DNA of 62,426 bases, the filler included, from Hausera hauseri (Eukaryota): NCBI GenBank assembly GCA_046269625.1. It is 12 parts of 12 records of this genome, joined end to end, with 100 filler letters (N's around TTAATTAATTAA, not from the genome) between each part and the next. Parts side by side here need not be neighbours in the genome. Positions count along the whole stretch, not along the records: positions 22,348 to 28,505 come from JBJURY010132761.1; positions 28,606 to 34,937 come from JBJURY010112210.1; 10 more parts are not named here. One strand, written 5' to 3'. The notes beneath the pieces are model-generated. The model did no database searches. It was not told where the DNA came from and was given only the letters and a program-made list of their open reading frames with translations. A program made the position numbers and the translations under genes. This document shows, piece by piece, positions 21,270-47,100 of the stretch. Numbering within the stretch: the first letter of the stretch is position 1; every line of letters begins with the position of its first letter.

Positions 21270-21600
21270 GATTGTAATGTTAGCCACAATAAGCAGTAAT
21301 GCCCACATAGTATAGTCATTGGATGTTGATAATGAACTCGATTATATTCAACACGGTATGATGATTGCCGTTCAATTTAAGAAACTAACGATGACGGATA
21401 GTAAAATCCGAGCGGATTGAATACTCTTACGACGTTGGTCGAATGGTGGACGTACACAGCAATCCAGTGTTCGCCCGGCAACGATGAAGTGTGTGTATTG
21501 ACAATAAAGCCACTAGTTTGTCGTAAATCATGCGTCACACAGTCCAGTGGAAACACGCCACGAAATTTCACGCCCAAGAGCAGTTTTCCGTAGTGACTTA
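21270..21600 (-). pseudogene. Polinton adenain-type cysteine protease, frameshifted
   Basis: FRGVFPLD, IVNT...PGEHWIAV, then in another frame VEYN...YQHPMTILCGHYCLLWL. Confidence 0.85.
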
Positions 21601-21696
21601 GCTCGCTGGAGCCAAATGTGAATTAAGTATGATAGTAATAATAGTAATAAATTACTTCATAGTACGACGAAGAAGTGAGACACAGCAGATTTTATT

Positions 21697-22247
21697 TATA
21701 CAATGACAATTCCGTTTTTCGTTATTTCAACCTCGGCTTCAAATACACCGTAAATGTACATCACGGTAGATTACTCCAACGCTTTAGCAAAGTGAACCTC
21801 CAGTTGTAGGTTTCCCTGCTGAGATAGTTGAGTCTGTTCAACGTCATAATCCGGAGCTAGGAAAAATCTGAAGATGGACTTGAACAAATCCATCGATATG
21901 CCATTGTTGACATTTTTGTTGAGCAAACCCATGTTGCGCACGATAGATTGCATATATGTGCAAACGTAATGACCGGTGTCGAAATCCTACTTGTATGTCT
22001 CAACAAAATCAGCATTCCGACTCAAACTGATGTAATTCAAACAGCTATGGGTAAACGTTTTCGAATCGGTCGCATAACTGTCCGTTTGTTGAATAGTCCT
22101 TTGAAATGTAACGAGAACACATTATGGCAATCGCATGTCGCCAAACAGTGCGTCCTTGTAAAACGTTGTCGAACCTTTGGGTATGGTGTAAAACACGAGT
22201 TCTGTGCGTTGTATCGGGTAACAGGCATTTTGTGTTTCCAAGCCCAA
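21697..22247 (-). pseudogene. Polinton major capsid protein, C-terminal remnant
   Basis: LAPD...QQGNLQLEVHFAKALE*STVMYIYGVFEAEVEITK aligns by eye with the end of the intact capsid at 25036-26340. Same capsid-then-protease order. Confidence 0.85.
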
Positions 22248-22365
22248 NNNNNNNNNNNNNNNNNNNNNNNNNNNNNNNNNNNNNNNNNNNNTTAATTAAT
22301 TAANNNNNNNNNNNNNNNNNNNNNNNNNNNNNNNNNNNNNNNNNNNNTTTTTTAGACTGCTTGAG

Positions 22366-22529
22366 GTCGCTGCTGGCGCCCTCTGGTGGATAAAAAGGGA
22401 ACTTCTTATTTTTGGTGCGTAGCATTGCATAAACAATAGAGGGTAAATTAAAATTAATTAATTAATAAGTTATTATATATAATTGCGGGACTTAGAATTT
22501 TTCAAGTCGCTGCTGGTGCCCTCTCGTGG
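22366..22529 (-). promoter_or_regulatory. Two CTCF-like motifs in a 24-nt direct repeat, 140 nt apart
   Basis: GCGCCCTCTGGTGG at 22376-22389 (reverse complement CCACCAGAGGGCGC) and GTGCCCTCTCGTGG at 22516-22529, each preceded by GTCGCTGCTG. Confidence 0.6.
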
Positions 22530-22582
22530 TTGAAAAAGAGATATAAAAAAGGGGGTTGTCTGTTTTTTATTTAGTTGTTGAG

Positions 22583-22753
22583 ATGCCATCGACGCAAGAA
22601 GTAATCAGCGTGCTGTGTTTATACGCGTTTTTAGCTGGCATTTTTGTACTGATTTACGTGTTGACAGGAAGTGAAAAATTAGCGGTGGATTTTATTTTAC
22701 GTTTCAACGATACTGGAAATTTATTTTTTCTACGTCGGAATGTTACGTTTTAA
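22583..22753 (+). CDS. Small predicted single-pass membrane protein (56 aa)
   Basis: MPSTQEVISVLCLYAFLAGIFVLIYVLTG hydrophobic run. Preceded by TATAAAAA (22542) and TTAGT (22571). Confidence 0.5.
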   Translation: MPSTQEVISVLCLYAFLAGIFVLIYVLTGSEKLAVDFILRFNDTGNLFFLRRNVTF

Positions 22754-22788
22754 ATGCACTGTGAGGAATAATTATATTTCGCGTGACA

Positions 22789-23829
22789 ATGAAGAAAGCG
22801 TACCTAGATCCAAGTCACCCGGCAAGTTATGCTGGCTCAAATGTCTTTTACCGTGCATTGCAAAGAAAAGTGCCAGAGAAAGAGATTCGAAATTGGTTAA
22901 GTGGCGTGGACGCCTACACCTTGCACAAACCTGCGCGTCGAAATTTCCCGACGAACCGCGTGATTGTGTATTCGATCGATCAGCAATGGCAAGCGGATTT
23001 GGTGGACATGCAAGCGTTGCAAAAATTTAATAAGGGGTATCGATACATACTCACCTGCATCGACATTTTATCGAAGTATGCGTGGGCGATTCCCCTCAAG
23101 TCCAAGCGAGGGGAGGACATTACTAAAGCCTTTCAACAGATATTTTTAGAGCGCAAGCCCCAATCGCTGCAAACAGATCAAGGAACTGAATTTAAAAATG
23201 CAACTTTTCAAAAATTGTTAAAACAGCAAGGGATACGATTTTTCACGACGTTTAACACAACTAAAGCCTCGATTGTCGAGCGTTTTAACAGAACTCTGAA
23301 AACGAGGATGTGGAAATATTTTACGCAACACTCTACTTATAATTATTTGGATGTGCTCGATCAACTGACGTACAGTTATAACCGTACGATGCATAGCAGC
23401 ATTCAGAGGACCCCCGCCGACGTGCATGCGGGGAACGAGCGAGACGTATGGTTCACCCTGTATGGTGACTTACAGGATGCCAAGCGCAAACCCTGTACCT
23501 TTCAGGTGGGGGATACGGTGCGTGTTTCCAAGCATAAACTCACCTTTGAAAAAGGATATGAAAGCAACTGGTCCGAGGAACTGTTTAAAGTGACCGAGTG
23601 CGTGCCGCGCGACCCCCCTGTGTACCGGATCAAGGACCTGATGGACGAACCTATTCAGGGAACGTTTTATGCGCAGGAACTGCAAAAAGTGCAAGCCAAG
23701 GAAGAGTTTGTGGTGGAAAAAATATTAAAAAGGCGTACGAAGAACGGGCGCGAAGAATATCTTGTAAAATACCGGGGATATCCCGCCAAATTTAATCAGT
23801 GGGTGACGGATGTATTTAAACTATCCTAA
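22789..23829 (+). CDS. Polinton retroviral-type (rve) integrase with C-terminal chromodomain
   Basis: DDE triad WQADLVD / LQTDQGTEF / IVERFNRTLK; NWSEELF; chromodomain VEKILK...YLVKYRGYPAKFNQWV. ATG at 22789 preferred over GTG at 22783. Confidence 0.95.
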   Translation: MKKAYLDPSHPASYAGSNVFYRALQRKVPEKEIRNWLSGVDAYTLHKPARRNFPTNRVIVYSIDQQWQADLVDMQALQKFNKGYRYILTCIDILSKYAWAIPLKSKRGEDITKAFQQIFLERKPQSLQTDQGTEFKNATFQKLLKQQGIRFFTTFNTTKASIVERFNRTLKTRMWKYFTQHSTYNYLDVLDQLTYSYNRTMHSSIQRTPADVHAGNERDVWFTLYGDLQDAKRKPCTFQVGDTVRVSKHKLTFEKGYESNWSEELFKVTECVPRDPPVYRIKDLMDEPIQGTFYAQELQKVQAKEEFVVEKILKRRTKNGREEYLVKYRGYPAKFNQWVTDVFKLS

Positions 23830-23831
23830 CC

Positions 23832-23866
23832 TATAAATAAAGCTGTCACGACCTACCTCCATCAGT
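23832..23866 (+). promoter_or_regulatory. TATA + initiator core promoter for the capsid block
   Basis: TATAAATA at 23832, TCAGT at 23862, ATG at 23874. Overlaps AATAAA at 23836 just after the integrase stop. Confidence 0.65.
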
Positions 23867-23873
23867 TGCTACG

Positions 23874-24617
23874 ATGAATTTCTACATTACCTTACCGAGC
23901 GACAGCTCTCTGAATTATTTTCCCGAGAATAAAATTTCGCATTTCATCACACGGTTGCCGACCCCCATTGAACTGATAGGCGAATGGGAAGTCGGTTTGG
24001 TAGAATTTATTTATCCCCATACCTGGTATAATGTGAATAGCAATAATAATTTAATCGGATTTGACTTGAACGATGGAAAAGTGCTGGGACGGCGCATCCC
24101 ACCTGGATTTTACGAAACGGTGCCTGACATATTAAAAGCGATTACACTGGAGAAGCATCGAAATAAAATCTATTTTAAATTTAATCCAGTCACCAAGCGG
24201 GTGACGATTAGTGTGAAGAATGGAGCCAAGGTGGTACTGCGTCCCGGATTGGCCGAAATGTTGGGTTTTGATCCCTGCGAAATTGAGTCCCCCGACGAGA
24301 ATGTAGAAAAGGCGACCGAAAGTCCGTACGTGGCAGATCCGTGCGCTCACTACCGAGTCCTGCTAGTGTATTCGGACATTGTGGAACCTCAAATTATTGG
24401 AAACGTGCACGCACCTTTACTGCGCATCGTGAATGTGACTGGAAAGGATGGAGAAGTGATGAGCGCCCAATACGATCGACCCCATTACTTGCCGGTGAAC
24501 CGGAAAATTATTGATACTTTGGAAATAGTTATAAGGACTCACACAGGCGAGCTCACGCCATTTGAACGCGGACGCTCGTACGTGAAGCTTCATTTTCGAC
24601 AAAAGTACCTCTCATAA
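23874..24617 (+). CDS. Minor capsid protein (penton-like, PX)
   Basis: FYITLPSDSS...FP.N...F...LP.PI.L.GEWEVGL N-terminus and VYSDIVEPQIIG...PLLRIV...Y.PV...LHFR C-terminus typical of Polinton pentons. Confidence 0.88.
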   Translation: MNFYITLPSDSSLNYFPENKISHFITRLPTPIELIGEWEVGLVEFIYPHTWYNVNSNNNLIGFDLNDGKVLGRRIPPGFYETVPDILKAITLEKHRNKIYFKFNPVTKRVTISVKNGAKVVLRPGLAEMLGFDPCEIESPDENVEKATESPYVADPCAHYRVLLVYSDIVEPQIIGNVHAPLLRIVNVTGKDGEVMSAQYDRPHYLPVNRKIIDTLEIVIRTHTGELTPFERGRSYVKLHFRQKYLS

Positions 24618-25033
24618 TGTATGTGCCTTATCAGTGCTGTCAAAAATCCTTTGAGGATTATTATCTGCATCAAACCGGAAGCGGACTGAATTATTACCAA
24701 GGTGCGCCTTATCAGAAAGGTTATGGCTTTGGCGGACTCTTTCGTTCGTTTTTTCGTGCGGCGGTGCCCCTTTTTAAATCGGGGGCGAAAGCCCTCGGAA
24801 AACAACTGTTTCACAGTGGTGTGAATCTCCTGAATGACGTGTCTCGCGGGGAGGATCCCAAAATAGCGGCCAAGCGACACTTGAAAGAAGCCGGTCGACA
24901 GTTAACCGACAAGGCGGCTACTAAAATGAAGACCATGATTGGTTCCGGCCGCAATAAAAAGAGGAAGCGACTTCAAAAAACCATCAGTTCCCGTTCTGGC
25001 AAGAAAGTGAAAGCACGTGATATTTTTGATTAA
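24617..25033 (+). CDS. PZ-type core/membrane-active virion protein
   Basis: YY..QTGSG, QKGYG, amphipathic FGGLFRSFFRAAVPLFKSGAKALGK, MIGSG followed by a basic tail, terminal DIF. Confidence 0.72.
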   Translation: MYVPYQCCQKSFEDYYLHQTGSGLNYYQGAPYQKGYGFGGLFRSFFRAAVPLFKSGAKALGKQLFHSGVNLLNDVSRGEDPKIAAKRHLKEAGRQLTDKAATKMKTMIGSGRNKKRKRLQKTISSRSGKKVKARDIFD

Positions 25034-25035
25034 AG

Positions 25036-26340
25036 ATGTCGATCTACAAAGACTCCCACGCTTGTTCGAAATCCGAACTTGATTTGTTTGCCGTCCCACC
25101 CACACAGACTGCGATTGAAAAAGGACATTTTATCGAATTCTTTCCCTTGGCGAATATACGCGATGGAGGACCCGTGGAATTTAACATATCGGGGAGCGGA
25201 GAGGATTATATGGACTTATCCTCTTCCTACCTGCACGTGAAAGCCAAAATTGTGAAATCGGATGGAGTCCCTTTACCTGAAAACGAACCGGTAGCCCCCG
25301 TGAATTTATTTTTACAAGCCCTTTTTTCGCAAGTGGATGTCAGCTTGAATGAACGCGTGATTTCTTCAGCCAGCAGCACCTACCCCTACCGAGCCTACAT
25401 CGAAACTTTGATGAACTATGGAGAAGATGCCAAGAAAAGCTTACTCACCTGTGAATGTTTTTACAAGGACACTCACTTAAACGTGGCCGACCCCCTTCTG
25501 GCAGCAAAAGGAAACGAGGGACTCAAGAAACGCTACGAGATGACCGCCAAAAGTCAAATCGTAGACATGATTGGACAATTACACTGTGACATTTTTCAAC
25601 AAAATCGACTGTTACTGAATATGGTGGATCTGAAAATAAAAATGACCCGCAGCGAACCCAATTTTTGTTTGATGACAGCCAAAGCCGATACCAAGTATAA
25701 AGTGATTCTCATGCATGCTTCGCTGTTTATTCGCAAGGTGAAAGTGAGCCCCGGCGTATCTCTGGGGCATGCCAAGGCTTTAGAAAAAGGCAATGCCAAA
25801 TATCCCATTGACCGTGTGCTCTGCAAAACCTTTTCTGTCTCGCAAGGAAGCTGGTCGTTTATGCAAGACAATGTGTTTTTAGGGGCCATGCCCAAGCGGG
25901 TGATTATTACTTGTTTGGAAAATGCCGCCATTAATGGGCAGTACAATTTAAATCCGTTCCTGTTTGATCATTATCACGTCAACTTTCTCAGTATTTACGT
26001 GGACGGACAACCTGTACCCAGCAAGCCTTTGGAACTGAATTTTGAAAACAACAACTACATACGGGCTTATCACCGATTGTTTGCTGGATTTAATCAAGAT
26101 AAGGGACTTTATGTGACACGAGACGAATTCGCCCAGGGGCATACTGTGTATGCCTTTGACTTATCGCCCGATCTCTGTGACGGACCCCATATGAACTTAC
26201 AACAGCAAGGCAATTTGCGAGTCGAAATTAAATTTTCAAAGGCCTTGGAAAAGACTCTGACCGTATTTATTTACGCTGAATTTGAAAACGTCATCGAAAT
26301 TACAAAATCACGACAGGTGTTGTGCGATTTCGCCAATTAA
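25036..26340 (+). CDS. Major capsid protein (double jelly-roll, hexon-like, PY)
   Basis: CSKSELDLFAVPPTQTAIEKG, LFSQVDVSLN, YPYRAYIETL, AFDLSPD, GNLRVEIKF; 434 aa uninterrupted. Confidence 0.93.
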   Translation: MSIYKDSHACSKSELDLFAVPPTQTAIEKGHFIEFFPLANIRDGGPVEFNISGSGEDYMDLSSSYLHVKAKIVKSDGVPLPENEPVAPVNLFLQALFSQVDVSLNERVISSASSTYPYRAYIETLMNYGEDAKKSLLTCECFYKDTHLNVADPLLAAKGNEGLKKRYEMTAKSQIVDMIGQLHCDIFQQNRLLLNMVDLKIKMTRSEPNFCLMTAKADTKYKVILMHASLFIRKVKVSPGVSLGHAKALEKGNAKYPIDRVLCKTFSVSQGSWSFMQDNVFLGAMPKRVIITCLENAAINGQYNLNPFLFDHYHVNFLSIYVDGQPVPSKPLELNFENNNYIRAYHRLFAGFNQDKGLYVTRDEFAQGHTVYAFDLSPDLCDGPHMNLQQQGNLRVEIKFSKALEKTLTVFIYAEFENVIEITKSRQVLCDFAN

Positions 26341-26342
26341 GC

Positions 26343-26819
26343 ATGAATACCACGCAACTCAGTCGCGTGTTGAAGCAAGACCGCTCTACCCGAAAATACT
26401 TTTTGGGTGTGTTTCCAAGTGATCACGTGCCGGTCCGGTTCTCTCGTTTTCCCGTGTGTTTCGTTGTGAATGTGGACCCATCGACGGAAGCGGGCTCGCA
26501 TTGGGTGTGTTTTTACGTGACCGATGCTGCTCACCTTGAATTTTGGGACAGTTTTGCCAAGAAGCCTAGTTTTTATCCAGGACCGATTGCTGATTTTGCC
26601 TCAAGATATCGACATGTGGAGCATAACCCCCTGATGCTGCAAAGTTCTGTCACGGCTGTGTGTGGCCAGTATTGTATTTATTATTTGTATGCGAGATGTA
26701 GGGGACACCCCCTGAAAAACATTGTGTCTTCTTTTGTGACTCGGCATGTGTGTAATGACATGCGTGTATATAATTTTGTTATCAAGCGTTTTCATGTACG
26801 TGCTCCTTTTTATCAATAA
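26343..26819 (+). CDS. Adenain-like maturation cysteine protease
   Basis: FLGVFPSD; catalytic H (GSHW), D (FWDSF), Q and C (LQ...VCGQYC). ATG at 26343. Confidence 0.93.
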   Translation: MNTTQLSRVLKQDRSTRKYFLGVFPSDHVPVRFSRFPVCFVVNVDPSTEAGSHWVCFYVTDAAHLEFWDSFAKKPSFYPGPIADFASRYRHVEHNPLMLQSSVTAVCGQYCIYYLYARCRGHPLKNIVSSFVTRHVCNDMRVYNFVIKRFHVRAPFYQ

Positions 26820-26822
26820 ATG

Positions 26823-26857
26823 TATTTAAATGTTAACCCTGTGTCCTGGTCTTTAGT
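26823..26857 (+). promoter_or_regulatory. TATA-like + initiator core promoter for the ATPase
   Basis: TATTTAAA at 26823, TTAGT at 26853, ATG at 26862. Confidence 0.55.
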
Positions 26858-26861
26858 CACG

Positions 26862-27491
26862 ATGGAATTTCCAAAGCTGCAACACCCCCATACCATGGTG
26901 GTCGCGGGGCCTACAGGGTGTGGGAAAAGTTATTTTGTACGCGATTTGCTAAAGTATAAGCGGGAGATGATCGATCCCGTACCCGATAAAGTGGTGTGGT
27001 TTTACGGCATATGGCAACCGCTCTACGAAGAAATCCCCGACGTCACGTTTGTGGAAGGCCTCCCTTCGAATTATCGAGAGTACTTGGGGACGCACACCTT
27101 GTTTATTATCGACGATTTAATGAGCGAATGTGGAGGAGATAAGCGGCTGACGCACCTGTTTACGCGGGGAAGTCATCATTTGAATTTAAGTATTATTTTT
27201 ATCACCCAGAATTTTTTTCACAAAGGTAAAGAAATGCGGGAAATTACGCTGAACGCACATTATATACTGCTCTGTAAAAATCGCCGAGACCTCGGTCAAA
27301 TCACCCATTTGGGGCTGCAGTTGTTTCCCAGACACTTAAAATTTTTTCAAGAAGTGTACGAAGATGCCACGAAAAAGCCCTATTCCTACTTATTTATAGA
27401 CTTGCGGAGCGAAACTCCCGAGAACCTGCGATTGCGCACGCAAATATTACCCAATCAAATTCAATATATTTATGAAAGAAAACATATTTAA
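26862..27491 (+). CDS. A32/FtsK-like genome-packaging ATPase
   Basis: Walker A GPTGCGKS, Walker B LFIIDD, FTRGSHH...ITQN, PYSYLFIDL. Confidence 0.93.
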   Translation: MEFPKLQHPHTMVVAGPTGCGKSYFVRDLLKYKREMIDPVPDKVVWFYGIWQPLYEEIPDVTFVEGLPSNYREYLGTHTLFIIDDLMSECGGDKRLTHLFTRGSHHLNLSIIFITQNFFHKGKEMREITLNAHYILLCKNRRDLGQITHLGLQLFPRHLKFFQEVYEDATKKPYSYLFIDLRSETPENLRLRTQILPNQIQYIYERKHI

Positions 27492-27519
27492 TCCCTTCGC
27501 ACTCTGTGAAGAGTTTAGT
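27485..27519 (+). promoter_or_regulatory. TATA-like + initiator core promoter for the last two genes
   Basis: TATTTAAT at 27485, TTAGT at 27515, ATG at 27527. Confidence 0.55.
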
Positions 27520-27526
27520 TGTCACG

Positions 27527-27856
27527 ATGACAGTGAGTCAGCAACAGCTTCATCAATTACAGCTTCTCCAAACGTGTCCGCAAAAATTACGCAAAGATTT
27601 ATTGAAGCGGATACCTGCTACCTGCATTCAAGCGATCTGTGAATGTACTTTGAACTTGCTGAAAGGAAACGTGCCTGTCACTCCCCAGCAAAAGAAGTGT
27701 TTAAAAAAATATAAAACTGTACTGCGACGCGTGGCTGATAAACGAACCTCTCTTTTTACGAAACGGAAATTGATCGTACAGAAGGGCGGGTTTTTAAACG
27801 TACTATTGCCTGCTGCTATTTCGATTTTAAGCACCTTATTCCATGGAACACGCTAA
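27527..27856 (+). CDS. Adenovirus pX/mu-like basic core protein precursor (PW-type)
   Basis: ICEC..NLLKGNVP, basic KRKLI, then QKGG|FLNVLLPAAISIL, which resembles the pX GG cleavage site plus hydrophobic tail. Confidence 0.75.
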   Translation: MTVSQQQLHQLQLLQTCPQKLRKDLLKRIPATCIQAICECTLNLLKGNVPVTPQQKKCLKKYKTVLRRVADKRTSLFTKRKLIVQKGGFLNVLLPAAISILSTLFHGTR

Positions 27857-28466
27857 AAAATATGCTTTGGTCCCAGAGGAGAGCTTATCCAGGCATACCC
27901 CTAGCAAAAAGCACATGACGGATTTTGATCGAGAAATGTCTCACATTTTAAACAGTACCTTAGAAGATTATGAAAAAGTGCAACGCTATTACGAACTCTT
28001 GCAAAAGAAAATGAATCTACAGCAGCATAATCTACCCTGGATCCCACCTCCCGAGACGGAAAAAGCGCCTCCAGAAAAAATGAAACCCGAGCCCGACGAC
28101 GACGACTACAGTGCCACGATTTTAAATGCCGTGCCCAAACCTTTGAAAAACCAAGCCCGGGGACTGATGGAATTATTAAGAAAACATCCCGCTTCTTTCA
28201 CCTGGAATAATCAAGGCCAGATGATGTATAAAGGACAGAGTTACTCCAATTCCAATATGGCGGATTTGTTCAACTTGCTGTTTACACATCGAAAAAATAC
28301 ACACGTGACCGACAAGAATGCCTTTCTGAATGCACTCTACGATATGAACATTCCTAAACTGTATGTCAAAAACAAGTATTTATCCTATCCTCTGAAATCA
28401 CAGGATGTATCACCGACTGCAAAACCTGTCTCTGATGTAAAACCCAGTTGGATCCATTATGAATAA
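27843..28466 (+). CDS. Conserved Polinton protein of unknown function (PM-type)
   Basis: MEHAKKYALVP, D.EM..IL, K...Y...LQ, WNNQGQMMYKG...SNMADL. AATAAA overlaps the stop codon. Confidence 0.72.
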   Translation: MEHAKKYALVPEESLSRHTPSKKHMTDFDREMSHILNSTLEDYEKVQRYYELLQKKMNLQQHNLPWIPPPETEKAPPEKMKPEPDDDDYSATILNAVPKPLKNQARGLMELLRKHPASFTWNNQGQMMYKGQSYSNSNMADLFNLLFTHRKNTHVTDKNAFLNALYDMNIPKLYVKNKYLSYPLKSQDVSPTAKPVSDVKPSWIHYE

Positions 28467-28724
28467 AAGAATGGTTTTTATAACATAACTGTGTTGATTA
28501 TTTCANNNNNNNNNNNNNNNNNNNNNNNNNNNNNNNNNNNNNNNNNNNNTTAATTAATTAANNNNNNNNNNNNNNNNNNNNNNNNNNNNNNNNNNNNNNN
28601 NNNNNTTGATGAGAAATGATACGATGAATGATGATACGAAAAATGGCGATCCGATAAATGCCGATACAAAAAAAGCAAATATCTATACCAAAAATACGAT
28701 ACACCGGACTGGCCCAGAATATAC

Positions 28725-42419: not shown

Positions 42420-44135
42420 AGATTTCTAGCTCTATGAGAATCTAGCAGATGGATTAACAGAAATGCAGTGACAAAGGAATCATTTATAGGAACAGCTTAA
42501 AAGAAAAACCTAGGAAAAGAAATCATACAAAAACTGGCTATAATAGAAAGGTGAAGAGACTAAGACCTCAAAAGTAACAGAAAGAATACAATGAAAAGAA
42601 GAAACAAGTTAAGATAAAAGTCAGAAACGATAAAGGACAAGAGGATGCAGACTAAAACAAAGTTCTACAACTCAGCTAACTCTTATACAGTGTTTCAGTG
42701 GTTAAGAAAGTTTAAAAGTAAATAGTCCACACTGTTATTTTTGACATGATATCCCATGGGCACATGATTTTTGTTTACGTTAATTTCATTATTTAAGTTA
42801 CTTTTGACATGACATCCCAGGGGAACAAGAGAAAGGGGTCCTTTGGTGGACATAGTTATCATGATGCAGCCTAGCCAGCTAAAATAGCCAACGCACACCA
42901 CCAACATTTACACACCCTCCTGGGAAATTAGAAAGTTGCCTCAAATCCCATGCAGGTTAAATTGCATACAGAAAAGTGCAGCTTAGCAACCGATCCATAA
43001 CCGCAATGCTTTATATGAACAGGAAAGACATGTTTGCATGAATGTCATAAAACAGAGACTATAGGACATTCATTACTGTTAAGAAATTTTAAATTTAACT
43101 AAGAAATTTGTACATGGCTGCTTATCCAGTGCATACTGTATCATGGATGGAAGTGCATGACTGCTGATAATTGTAATTACGTCTAGTCTGTGATGAGTCA
43201 CGCAGGCTATTTAAAAATTACATTCAATTTAAATGCTAGAGTCTAGACATGCACTTAACAATATAATAATTATGCTCATATTTGTAAGCTGCCACAAATA
43301 TAGCCCAATATTTTTTTTTTATATTTATTCAATTTCAAACAATTCAGTGAAAACAGCTGCACTTGTTAGTTATACATTACATTCTATTACTGTCCTAACC
43401 TTCACGTATTTTCTTGGTTTAGAAAGATTATTTAAGTGGAACAATTTGAGTTTCAAGTCAAATTTTCAAAAGTCGAAAAATTACAACTTTTGAAATTCAT
43501 AAATTTCTGGGGGGTTTTCCTAGAAAATTTCTAAGTAATATTTGTTTTTTGAAGCAGATTTACTCTTTTTTACTTCCTAACTACAATGGCTTTAATACGC
43601 CGTCATACTGAACAGAAGACCAGGTGAATTATTTTTGCCCTGTCTGAGTCTTCCAGTTCTTCCTATTTTAGCCTGATTAGTTTAATTTATTTCATTTGGG
43701 GTCTGAATTAACTGCATTTTTTTTTCATGGGATACCATTTTTACTTGAACATAAGACTAAGACAGATTTGGTTATTAAGTCTGTAATATTTGATAGATAT
43801 TGAAACAAAAAGTCCTGACAACAGAACATGGAAGTAGTAGAGGGATATAGTTTGGACATTAGGGGAAATATTGTTTCACTAACACTGCAAGTTTTGGGGT
43901 TTCTAAAGTGTGTGATGGATGTGATGGATGATACAAAGGACACTCACTGCGCATAGACTGAACAGCTCCCAGGGGAGTTGGTAAAGTACTTCCTGTCACT
44001 CCAACACCCCATTGTGTCATATTTTCACTCCACAANNNNNNNNNNNNNNNNNNNNNNNNNNNNNNNNNNNNNNNNNNNNTTAATTAATTAANNNNNNNNN
44101 NNNNNNNNNNNNNNNNNNNNNNNNNNNNNNNNNNN

Positions 44136-47100
44136 TACCTGACCACTTACATCGATGGCGTACATTTTTGATCTCAACGCAACGAAACGGGTGATGATCT
44201 TCCCATTCACCTCGTCTTTAAACTTCCCGAGGACGTTCTTGTTGACGGTTGAGTAATTTGGATGATCCTTCGGATAGTCCGAGGTATCCATATACTGCGC
44301 CAATTTTGCACACTTTTCAAAGACATCATCTGTGTGGATCTGGTATATGAAACTGTTCGTGTCCATGTACATTAGCTGGAGCTCCTTGAATGTGGGAAAC
44401 ATGATGTTGTAATGAAAGTCATATATAAAGGTCTTGGATAGATTTAATATGGACATGCCCACATATATAGACTTGTTGAACTCAAGTGATGTCTTGAGCA
44501 TATGGATGCTCACCAGGTTCTCTGTGTATATTGTGCTGCTGTGGAAGTTGGGCTTAGCGATGAGTTTCTTTGCCCTCTTCCAGTCACATAGCAGCTCGAT
44601 GTTTATCCAGTTCCGTATATTCTCCATAGTTTTGCCAAAGACCGAGTTGTTATACAGCTTGAATTGGTCCTTTTCAAACTCGTTCTAGCCATTGGCTCTC
44701 AACTGGGTATTGAGGTCTATGTATGGATTCAGCCATTTGGACTGGCTGAGCTGCAGAGCCCAATAAATCCTGATAACTCGGAGTCCACTTTGGATGGCCT
44801 GTTGGAGATTTATGTAGTGGGCTACATACCTCTCCCTGTTTTCCGAAGTGACATAGCAACTTCTTATGCTTACCATTTGGCGGCCTCTTGATCTCCGGGA
44901 GAAAAGCCAGCTGCTCATGCCTTGTGTGGATGCTATGTGGGTATTCCACGTCCACCTCCAGTGTGTAACCCGTATCTCCATTGGAATCCATACCTTCAAT
45001 ATCCAGGACTTGCGGCTGCTCCGCCCATGGAAAGTTATCATAGGGCAATGGGTGGTTCGTTGCCCATTCATACACATTGTTGGCATCCAGGTATGATATA
45101 TATGAGGATTCCTTGGATGAATCATAATCTACCATGTATTTGTTCTTGGCCTCACTGTACCTGTAAATGGCCTGGCAGATTCCGCCCCTGATGCCTCTAT
45201 TAATCATGAGGACTATATGGTAATCCTTCAAGATCTAGAGCCTTATGCCGGTATAGCGCGGCATAGCTGCCCAACTCAATCTTGGAGCTGTAAAGAAATG
45301 GGCTGGATTTAACTTGTGGTTCTTAAGGGTCACATCCCGGAAGCTTTCGAAAACATCAGTAAGCAACAGGACATCTGTGAGGAGATAGATATCACTGTAT
45401 TCCCCTATTATCCTGCAGTGGAAAGTCTGCCATACTCTTTGTGCGTGATCATAATCAGCATCGCTAATAAGACTGTATGACAACTGTCTATAGAAGTCCT
45501 TCTTGGCCGGTAATGCATCTTCATCAAGTGCTTTACATAACGTTATATAGTCATAGGAGAACATTCCTTTCCGCTTCACCAGGTCAAATGTGTCCGAGAA
45601 GAACCTCTTCGTCTCCTTGAGCTCATCAGCTGGAAGGTTCTTCACGAGGCTGTCCAGTGACGAGCTCATGAAGCGGAAGCTATCAATGAAGCGAAGTCTA
45701 ATGCGGCCCACATGCTTCACGAAGGTGGTGTACTTCTCACTATTTGGAATCACATCAATGTTCCCCTAAATATTATCCAATTCTCGAACAATAAAGTGTG
45801 AATCGTATCCACTAAGATTGTGGAATACCACTGCAACATATGTACATGTATTGCAGCGTAAGTTGCAATTGTTGCACGCTACGCCTCGGTATATGCCTGC
45901 AAAATGGCAGTGATCCCTGACATTGTGATTGTTCCATGTGAATGGCTTTCTGCATAAGTAGCATGTTAATGCTTTGCGCCATTCACATTTTTTTGCTGCG
46001 ACATCACATGTAGCCCTTATGCTGCTGCAACATGTCTTTAAGTTTGTGGACGTAATGTTCCAGATGCTGCATAAAATGTGCTGCTGCCTTTACACCCCTG
46101 TATATCTAGGGTTCTTTGTTCAGTCCTTTAGCATACATGCATTATGATGATAACTCATGGTACTGGTATGCTGTAATACTGCTTTGCTGTGGATTGGGGC
46201 AGCAACTGTGAACTGGATTGAGGATGGCCCCAAAGTCACAATATATAACAATCGGCACCTTCTGCATCTTCTCGAACTCCTTGAATTCCACGTAATCCTC
46301 CTTGGGGAATTCTCCTCGGATGAAGTAGTTTGTATTGCAGCAGGTCTTGTGCTCCTCCAGCTTTTCTGCGGCTGTGTCTCCATTAAAATGGGTAAAGCAT
46401 CTTTTGAATATATTTCTAGCTTTGATTTATGCTTGGATATTTGGGATCCTACGAGGCGCTCAAAATTCTCGATCCAGATGAAATGCCTCGTTTTTCCATC
46501 ATCTAGCAGGAACAGATCCCTATGATCCTCCACTTCTTCATTGCACACATGTAAGGTATAAAATTTGTCCTCCTCCAATCCGAAGATGTTGATGGAGATG
46601 TTATTCACGCTTTCAAATTTCACGATTTCATCTAGGCTCGACGGGAATGAAATACATCTGAAGTCGTATATGTGCTGCATTTTGTCATATATCCAAACTC
46701 GGGAATCATTATGTTGATCCTAGACTAGTTTTGACAAAATATAATACATGAAGCACATACTGTCCTCATTATGGACATTGATGCATACCTTTTTCTTAAC
46801 TATCCATTCAGGAAGCGGTATGTAGGAGCTGCCTCTCATGGGAGAATACTTGTGCACATGCACAAGTAACCCCTTTATTGTTGCTAAAGTCCAACCGCTC
46901 TACTTGTCCTGGCTTTCTTCGGCTTTGCAGATGAGCCTGGCATAGTCCTCTGTAATGAAATCCTTAATGTTAGAGGATTTCAATAGTGGTCTGTTCTTTG
47001 TCTTGAAGGCTCTACTAGACAGCTCTCGTTTGACATTGGTGAAGCTGGCTTCCAATTTGAAGTTCACCTTAAGGGCTTTCAGCTCCAATAAGTTGTTCTG

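Follow-up and report, generated by a model that had tools for sequence, protein, structure and literature searches.

What does an uninterrupted set of virion genes on a short contig tell us about the element that carries it: a recent or active virus, a resident family of an animal genome, or an artefact of assembly? The question is raised by positions 22348–28505 of a 62,426-nt window, made up of 12 stretches of the Hausera hauseri assembly GCA_046269625.1 joined end to end. This feature is the whole of the 6,158-bp contig JBJURY010132761.1 (G000:C132761, G000 being the assembly label), which a first-pass annotation had read as a fully intact virion-morphogenesis and integration module of a recent or active Polinton virus. 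We consider it probable that the integrase and virion genes on this contig belong to an adintovirus-like Maverick/Polinton family, likely to be endogenous in a spider, to be present there in many copies and to have replicated recently, the contig itself being likely a collapsed path rather than one copy.

Gene content and order of the contig

The contig carries nine plus-strand open reading frames (ORFs; Table 1), arranged head to tail with gaps of −14 to +44 nt in the gene block, intronless and without stops or frameshifts. These frames cover 93% of the contig. The first-pass description of nine unbroken ORFs was borne out, as was its statement that all catalytic motifs are present (DDE in the integrase, H/D/Q/C in the protease, and Walker A, GPTGCGKS, and Walker B, IIDD, in the ATPase). 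The gene order is that of an int-mcp-pw-Mcp-pro and an atp-pm-pz module, which share one strand and lack a polymerase. PW, PM and PZ were named from gene order and not from reference sequences. Gene content, order and capsid fold together support the earlier assignment to a Polinton/adintovirus virion and integration module.

Pfam analysis of the integrase revealed rve (E 1.5e-13) and Chromo (E 3.2e-9) domains, both over the cut-off. Structure prediction, which the first-pass annotation had suggested for capsid and penton, succeeded for the former: the AlphaFold2 model from a 61-row alignment was a double jelly roll with a predicted local distance difference test (pLDDT) score of 83, and Foldseek matched it to the capsids of iridovirus, Paramecium bursaria chlorella virus 1 (PBCV-1), mavirus and Sputnik (E ~1e-15; template modelling (TM) score 0.52–0.61). 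The single-sequence model of the penton candidate reached a pLDDT of only 34, and the ESM Atlas clusters of this protein, at 0.98, were mostly viral. The protease aligned with S273R of African swine fever virus (E 4e-4) and weakly with adenain (E 0.09), its Pfam match lying below the cut-off. The ATPase has a second in-frame ATG at 26820, and PW homologues hold the same position in loci L020 and L216–L220. The likely PM protein has a hydrophobic, GGF-led C-terminus and may resemble adenovirus pX. No Pfam match was obtained for the 56-aa ORF.

At its right end, the PZ stop overlaps a polyadenylation signal (AATAAA at 28462), and the contig ends 39 nt past PZ without a protein-primed DNA polymerase B (pPolB). 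No contig overlapping this end was found in the assembly, which is fragmented, and of its 93 PF03175 matches none of the loci examined was linked to the window lineage. The contig measures 6.2 kb; a whole Maverick/Polinton would be expected to span 13–25 kb.

The available text on vertebrate Mavericks (Barreat and Katzourakis 2021, PMC8097293) describes the same two modules, intronless ORFs, purifying selection on the capsid and AGT termini. The present element differs in having both modules on one strand, no ppolb directly before atp (the protease stop and the ATPase start are 42 nt apart), AGTAGA instead of (AGT)2 as end motif, and a host that is likely a spider. That text counts 134 intact elements among 17 species, so that intact modules cannot be called rare; the element is an ordinary kind of Maverick/Polinton, and its intact gene block alone is not unusual. 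It also shares the rve integrase–chromodomain, a likely penton, hexon, adenain and FtsK-type ATPase with the Beta (Terrapene-class) adintoviruses, and its gene order, compared as order and not through reference sequences, fits the maps Integrase-Penton-Cupiennin-Hexon-Adenain and FtsK-GasderminX-Adintoc2 in the accessible part of Starrett et al. 2021 (PMC8502044).

Table 1. Features of the contig, in window coordinates
Feature	Position	Strand	Basis or remark
Inner end of ~140-bp subterminal repeat array, two units	22348..22541	.	local alignments; assembly breaks here
CTCF-consensus motif, 14/14	22376..22389	-	points away from genes
CTCF-consensus motif, 13/14	22516..22529	-	same orientation as 22376..22389 motif
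56-aa hydrophobic ORF	22583..22753	+	open, 51-73% identical in L002, L003, L004
RVE integrase with C-terminal chromodomain	22789..23829	+	D70, D130, E164; Pfam
Likely penton (minor capsid protein), 247 aa	23874..24617	+	position in int-mcp-pw-Mcp-pro (PMC8097293, available text)
Likely PW ('Cupiennin'-class) basic, glycine-rich core protein, 138 aa	24617..25033	+	synteny
Double-jelly-roll major capsid protein (F54H12.2-like), 434 aa	25036..26340	+	fold, homology
Adenain-type maturation protease, 158 aa	26343..26819	+	H53, D69, Q100, C107
A32/IVa2-type packaging ATPase	26862..27491	+	Pfam Adeno_IVa2 and Pox_A32 over cut-off
Likely PM ('GasderminX'-class) protein, 109 aa	27527..27856	+	order atp-pm-pz; conserved in L020, L210
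Likely PZ protein, 207 aa	27843..28466	+	synteny; homologues elsewhere in assembly

Copies, selection and the host animal

Variation among copies was analysed in unitigs of run X1, a possible source of the assembly that accounts for 72% of the sampled words; runs X2 and X3 gave only short pieces at depth 2–4 and were left out. As many as 572 X1 unitigs lie on the contig at 85–100% identity (184 at ≥99%, 203 at 95–99%, 139 at 90–95% and 46 below 90%), the longest among those listed being 697 bp. The contig is therefore likely a collapsed path through several near-identical copies, in which breaks private to single copies would be invisible.

The differences scored came from 40 of 117 rows, minus three driven by X2, with changes below 10% share unlisted. 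The resulting 37 comprised two non-coding, 29 synonymous, six non-synonymous and no nonsense changes, so that 29 of the 35 coding differences (83%) were synonymous, compared with 21.6% expected (p 2e-14); the listed indels were one non-coding, one in-frame and one −1/+1 pair in the integrase. The ratio of non-synonymous to synonymous substitution rates (dN/dS) for capsid, penton, protease and ATPase was 0.08–0.21 wherever dS was measurable in open copies. Sister lineages in the assembly (55–92% aa identity), many of them at dS from 0.37 to saturation, were nearly all open, with one stop-containing high-scoring segment pair (HSP) in 26 and a frameshift in L021; below 55% identity, stops were present in 38 of 79 related HSPs. 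The synonymous bias, the open sisters and the low dN/dS argue that the family replicated under selection on its virion genes, and these results point to a multi-copy family under purifying selection, as has likewise been reported for the virion genes of cyprinid Mavericks. The first-pass claim of a recent or active element thus stands for the family and not for this contig as a single copy. What weighs against it is that the selection counts come from that subset of rows, restricted to changes at ≥10% share, and that damaged X1 copies occur (a 136-nt skip and the −1/+1 pair, both in the integrase).

A collapsed path of this kind could also have arisen when many older copies, each of them broken, were merged into one consensus by the assembly, its intactness then being an artefact, an outcome that the first-pass annotation had named as decisive against its reading. 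Private stops would sit under the 10% threshold, a low-depth animal in a mixed sample would be expected to assemble best at its multi-copy repeats, and broken copies are indeed found, including the L021 frameshift and a stop in L022. However, 387 of the 572 unitigs are ≥95% identical to the contig, the shared differences among the scored rows are predominantly synonymous and never nonsense, and stops are absent from 25 of the 26 related HSPs at ≥55% identity. As far as shared variants go, the check thus favoured genuine intactness, private breaks lying beyond its view, and we regard a consensus of broken copies as very unlikely.

Base composition gave no age. The contig's GC content of 0.435 is the highest of the 12 stretches, in agreement with the first-pass annotation; its CpG observed/expected ratio (o/e) of 1.14, taken there as a retention of CpGs, is unremarkable, as eight of the 11 other stretches have values ≥1.03. 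Neither figure dates the element, because a mostly broken family of 26 distant capsid loci shows the same values (median GC 0.45 and CpG o/e 1.10, compared with 0.44 and 1.12 for the element's coding part), although this family, distant in the tree and possibly sitting in another animal of the mixture, is an imperfect control. The frameshifted closer relative L021 also retains a CpG o/e of 1.10, and GC and CpG were rejected as age markers. The CpG o/e of the flanks next to related ends varies between 0.37 and 1.28, which leaves room for some CpG signal in the true host.

The assembly is a mixture, with at least seven distinct mitochondrial COX1 genes (L196–L205; 60–88% pairwise aa identity). 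One is of spider type (90–92% to Lycosidae, Cheiracanthium and others), one lacks AGA/AGG codons (vertebrate code, fish-like) and one reads AAA as Asn (flatworm/echinoderm code), which fits a flatworm as a further member; the remainder are presumably gastropod-, mite- and crustacean- or insect-like, to judge from sequence motifs only. Comparisons with 'host contigs' or with MCM2 are therefore unsafe, and any other finding that presupposes a single host is affected as well. Among the named capsid matches the best were spiders (Stegodyphus 72%, Araneus 69%), the nearest relatives overall being 75–85% identical, and in a quick capsid tree of 49 rows the smallest starred clade with the window protein held 19 rows (Shimodaira–Hasegawa-like approximate likelihood ratio test (SH-aLRT) 99), in which all four named rows were spiders. 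The host of the element is likely a spider, to judge from these sequence relationships. Spider adintoviruses are already known from Parasteatoda and Nephila (PMC8502044, available text). In IMG/VR, no relatives were found by integrase, capsid alignment or terminal 22-mer.

Ends of the element

The first 194 nt of the contig match many short contigs. They align at 71–83% identity with repeat units in L014, L015, L016, L017 and L018, of which L014, L016 and L018 carry the units through to the element terminus, and the first 54 nt are 91% identical to C908838/L018. Depth in the first bin summed to 437, the remaining 29 bins having a median of 106; this 4.1-fold excess is not a copy number. Tandem Repeats Finder (TRF) reported no 140-bp array in the window, since it contains no more than two diverged units.

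L014, reached via the shared repeats, has a 5'-AGTAGATG terminus beside AT-rich DNA, and a degenerate pattern of the terminal 22-mer matched eight contigs (control, none). Six of these eight share inner terminal sequence and have different flanks, with a GC content of 0.30–0.40 outside and 0.50–0.57 inside the termini. The joining of related AGTAGA termini to different flanks indicates that the family integrates. Ends of the form 5'-AG...CT-3' joined to host DNA were thus found for the family (AGTAGATG and the six related contigs), and not for the window contig. One terminal flank is a retrotransposon-like frame, recognised by eye, and ESM Atlas gave no taxon for the gag-like flank of L034. 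The repeat array has two inner exits, into the integrase (window, L003) or elsewhere (L014, L033, L222), suggesting that it stands at both ends of the element, although no single contig spans both. Apart from these, L056 and L058 have the terminal 22-mer pattern with a different interior and without CTCF-type motifs, and the sequences of L032 and L034 begin with an internal copy, AGTAGTT, of the end motif.

Several observations weigh against integration of the block described here. The gene block is not joined to a terminus or a polymerase on any contig, and what connects it with the ends is the repeat unit shared at the 71–83% identity given above; the L030 flank is only 21 nt, itself repetitive and too short to judge. 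The six related termini are only 49–88% identical over 151 nt; the insertions are therefore not one recent burst and represent several ages or lineages. Among the eight terminal matches there was no 4–8 nt reverse-complement flank pair indicative of a target-site duplication, in a set that is unlikely to contain both ends of one insertion. Extension of the contig, advised by the first-pass annotation, thus yielded related termini, and neither a linked polymerase nor a target-site duplication.

The same annotation had allowed for an exogenous virus in the sample. If the contig came mainly from free replicating virus, as episomal DNA or virions, and the integrated ends belonged to older relatives, the fully open frames, the mostly synonymous variation, the unbranched X1 unitigs at depth ~60 and the mutual divergence of the junction contigs, none of them joined to the window contig, would all be accounted for; moreover, a Mayetiola adintovirus is reported as both free-ended and integrated (PMC8502044, available text). 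However, integrated ends exist, and the 85–100% spread of identity together with the many sister lineages fits a resident family better, which makes a free virus unlikely as the main source. As related termini adjoin unrelated flanks, an exogenous virus is unnecessary as an explanation, and we retain the endogenous, multi-copy family.

The repeat units contain a feature that the first-pass annotation had not noted. Using the CTCF consensus CCASYAGRKGGCRS from the available text of PMC6746451, we found that the two motifs listed in Table 1 are the only matches in 62 kb (0.10 expected; none of 100 shuffles reached two). In L003, the site homologous to the 22516..22529 motif is a different perfect variant, though the L003 integrase is at dS 0.92 from that of the window. 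Sixteen terminal regions (8,374 bases) contained 18 sites with at most one mismatch compared with 0.05 expected, all pointing to the terminus, and no such site was detected in the coding part, 20 polymerase loci or 26 old-capsid loci. Four non-homologous contexts carry the motifs, all in a single orientation, and the differences among the perfect sites are restricted to degenerate positions of the consensus.

Read inward, an end begins with the terminus and with GC boxes accompanied by TGACGT motifs. As many as three CTCF-type motifs follow, then a tRNA-like cassette, and the innermost part is made of ~140-bp units with one CTCF-type motif each, of which the window holds the last two; this anatomy was pieced together across the separate contigs L014, L016, L017, L018, L030–L033 and L222. 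The outer terminal region (L014 2570–2830, L018 731–1010, L028) is rich in GGGGCGTGGCC boxes and TGACGT motifs, which we take to be reminiscent of the Sp1 and ATF sites in adenovirus terminal repeats.

The cassette is oriented for transcription toward the terminus and has the layout of a type-2 RNA polymerase III (Pol III) promoter. Scanning nine loci with A- and B-box patterns revealed a B box in all nine, a strict A box in six and a run of four T residues (T4) in eight, the B box lying 44–45 nt from the A box and the T4 run 17–21 nt past the B box. All three elements are kept in diverged variants whose middles differ; a further variant in L222 was read by eye. A transcript of ~85 nt is possible from this predicted layout. 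The cassette was considered as a tRNA gene and rejected for lack of a cloverleaf, as ARAGORN detected no tRNA gene in 13 loci, nor in six cassettes at a relaxed score, and none of nine loci matched a tRNA in Rfam at E ≤1. The consensus structure was weak (−5.4 kcal/mol, two of 15 pairs compensatory, with one input sequence mis-cut), and thus no conserved RNA fold is claimed. One cassette type was found in six contigs only, all with other terminal parts, by a search that skips very common words. Together, the terminal CTCF-type motifs and the tRNA-like cassette appear as a sequence feature well above chance, limited to this clade so far.

How might such an element work? From Polinton biology, a protein-primed polymerase (not linked here) would copy the excised element, and the ATPase, protease, penton, capsid and core proteins would package it; the chromodomain integrase would then insert it through its 5'-AGTAGA ends. 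The start of the contig would be the inner margin of a long terminal repeat, to which host CTCF and TFIIIC/Pol III may be drawn so that it forms a boundary against flanking silent chromatin. CTCF and TFIIIC are insulator factors, viruses use CTCF sites and the outward sites face host flanks, and for these reasons we favour such a boundary role, tentatively and with slightly less than even confidence. That the ends form a built-in terminal insulator, in which outward CTCF clusters and a Pol III cassette making a ~85-nt RNA would shield the genome of the element and plant a boundary at each insertion, is a more doubtful proposal. CTCF is reportedly present in arthropods.

Other observations pull against a CTCF role. 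The 16 terminal regions are homologous, so their 18 sites are not independent. Only 10 of 21 flank-anchored array units have at most one mismatch, and eight have at least three. The genome-wide excess of the motif (1,060 compared with 61) comes from low-CpG loci (median 0.55), which may be fish, and therefore gives no proof that the element's host uses CTCF. The distant relatives, whose ends are mostly not captured, show no motif cluster: 301 kb of 80 metagenome integrase loci gave five single-mismatch sites, and none of six misbinned loci has a site with at most one mismatch.

The terminal motifs could instead bind another factor, such as a zinc-finger protein of the element or the host or the replication machinery, with the tRNA-like piece being a captured head of a short interspersed nuclear element (SINE) or a gene resembling that for adenovirus virus-associated (VA) RNA. 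In its favour, consensus positions 3–5 have drifted in half of the array units, some adintoviruses possess zinc-finger genes (PMC11071296, available text), and the present assembly contains zinc-finger arrays fused to a polymerase-like domain. For the cassette, its running into unrelated sequence in L015, L030 and L032 would suit a SINE head, and the T4 terminator at its distance from the B box, with the transcript length that this permits, would suit a small-RNA gene. Set against a different factor are the recurrence of the motif in four unrelated contexts in one orientation and the confinement of variation among perfect sites to degenerate positions, and the restriction of one cassette type to six contigs with other terminal parts argues against a high-copy SINE. 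We hold these alternatives possible, with distinct reservations, and continue to favour the boundary role in its tentative form.

Related loci and possible meaning of the ends

Other Polinton-related loci were observed in the window and the assembly. In the neighbouring stretch, window 21293–22244 (minus strand; GC 0.41, CpG o/e 1.29) contains a degraded, distant Polinton capsid and protease, at 30% and 34% identity and with three stops and one stop respectively. Window 44088–46719 (minus strand) holds fragmented frames that, to judge from their motifs, are probably type-B DNA polymerase-like, and window 1381–7130 is a long degenerate TTCG/TTCT-type repeat array with extreme T skew, in a stretch of CpG o/e 2.54. 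L020 (G000:C44887, 6,999 bp) is a second Maverick core with open frames, 42–60% identical in most genes and placed in a spider-containing clade; its two modules converge, as those of vertebrate elements do, and ATPase and PM are separated by an additional ORF of 198 aa. L141–L166 represent a large, mostly broken Polinton family, for which 97 of 8,194 first-look capsid candidates were scored; in the tree it makes up a remote, long-branched clade, and its host may be a different animal of the mixture. Polinton virion-gene contigs in bacterial metagenome-assembled genomes (L215–L220; Sedimenticola, Breoghania, Chlamydiia and SUP05 symbionts) are probably misbinned eukaryotic DNA.

In L223/L237 (C102210), L224 (C902049) and L022 (C517268), C2H2 arrays are followed by a domain like the N-terminus of the Polinton polymerase, in one frame in L223 and frameshifted in L224, L223 and L022 stopping at nearly the same motif; a zinc-finger gene family may here have captured a Polinton domain. 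The polymerase-like piece of L022, which lies beside a PZ fragment, was considered as a linked polymerase and rejected, as it leads to these fusion genes.

Are comparable ends known? CTCF sites are clustered in the repeat regions of HSV-1 (herpes simplex virus type 1; PMC13120354, available text), and a CTCF site acts as an insulator in the provirus of human T-cell leukaemia virus type 1 (HTLV-1; PMC12165413, available text). In contrast with these, the sites described here are predictions, belong to the terminal repeat of an invertebrate Preplasmiviricota element that integrates, and are paired with a tRNA-like cassette. tRNA-gene (tDNA)/TFIIIC barriers and adenovirus VA RNA genes have a type-2 Pol III promoter with an A box, a B box and a short T-run; the present cassette differs from them in having no recognised cloverleaf, no Rfam match and a freely varying middle. 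In the literature on Polintons, Mavericks and adintoviruses we found no CTCF-plus-Pol III ends, although Repbase, subscription papers and supplements could hold them, and nothing linking an adintovirus or polinton with VA RNA and polymerase III. CTCF and tRNA are absent from the accessible main text of PMC8097293, no insulator or Pol III element is described in the accessible part of PMC8502044, tRNA is absent from the text of PMC10748475, and CTCF occurs once among the Polinton-focused papers listed, for a zinc-finger gene. The 2026 review PMC13120354, in its available text, does not mention polintons, Mavericks or invertebrates. The terminal CTCF-plus-Pol III architecture is thus apparently undescribed so far.

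Descriptions of Maverick terminal repeats are usually limited to length and end motif, and the cassette could explain how Mavericks stay expression-competent after germline integration. If the boundary role held, this would be the first such cis-architecture in a Polinton, with a small RNA that would be a functional parallel of adenovirus VA RNA. Viral use of CTCF would then extend to invertebrate integrating DNA viruses, and the elements would be candidates for spreading CTCF sites in arachnid genomes.

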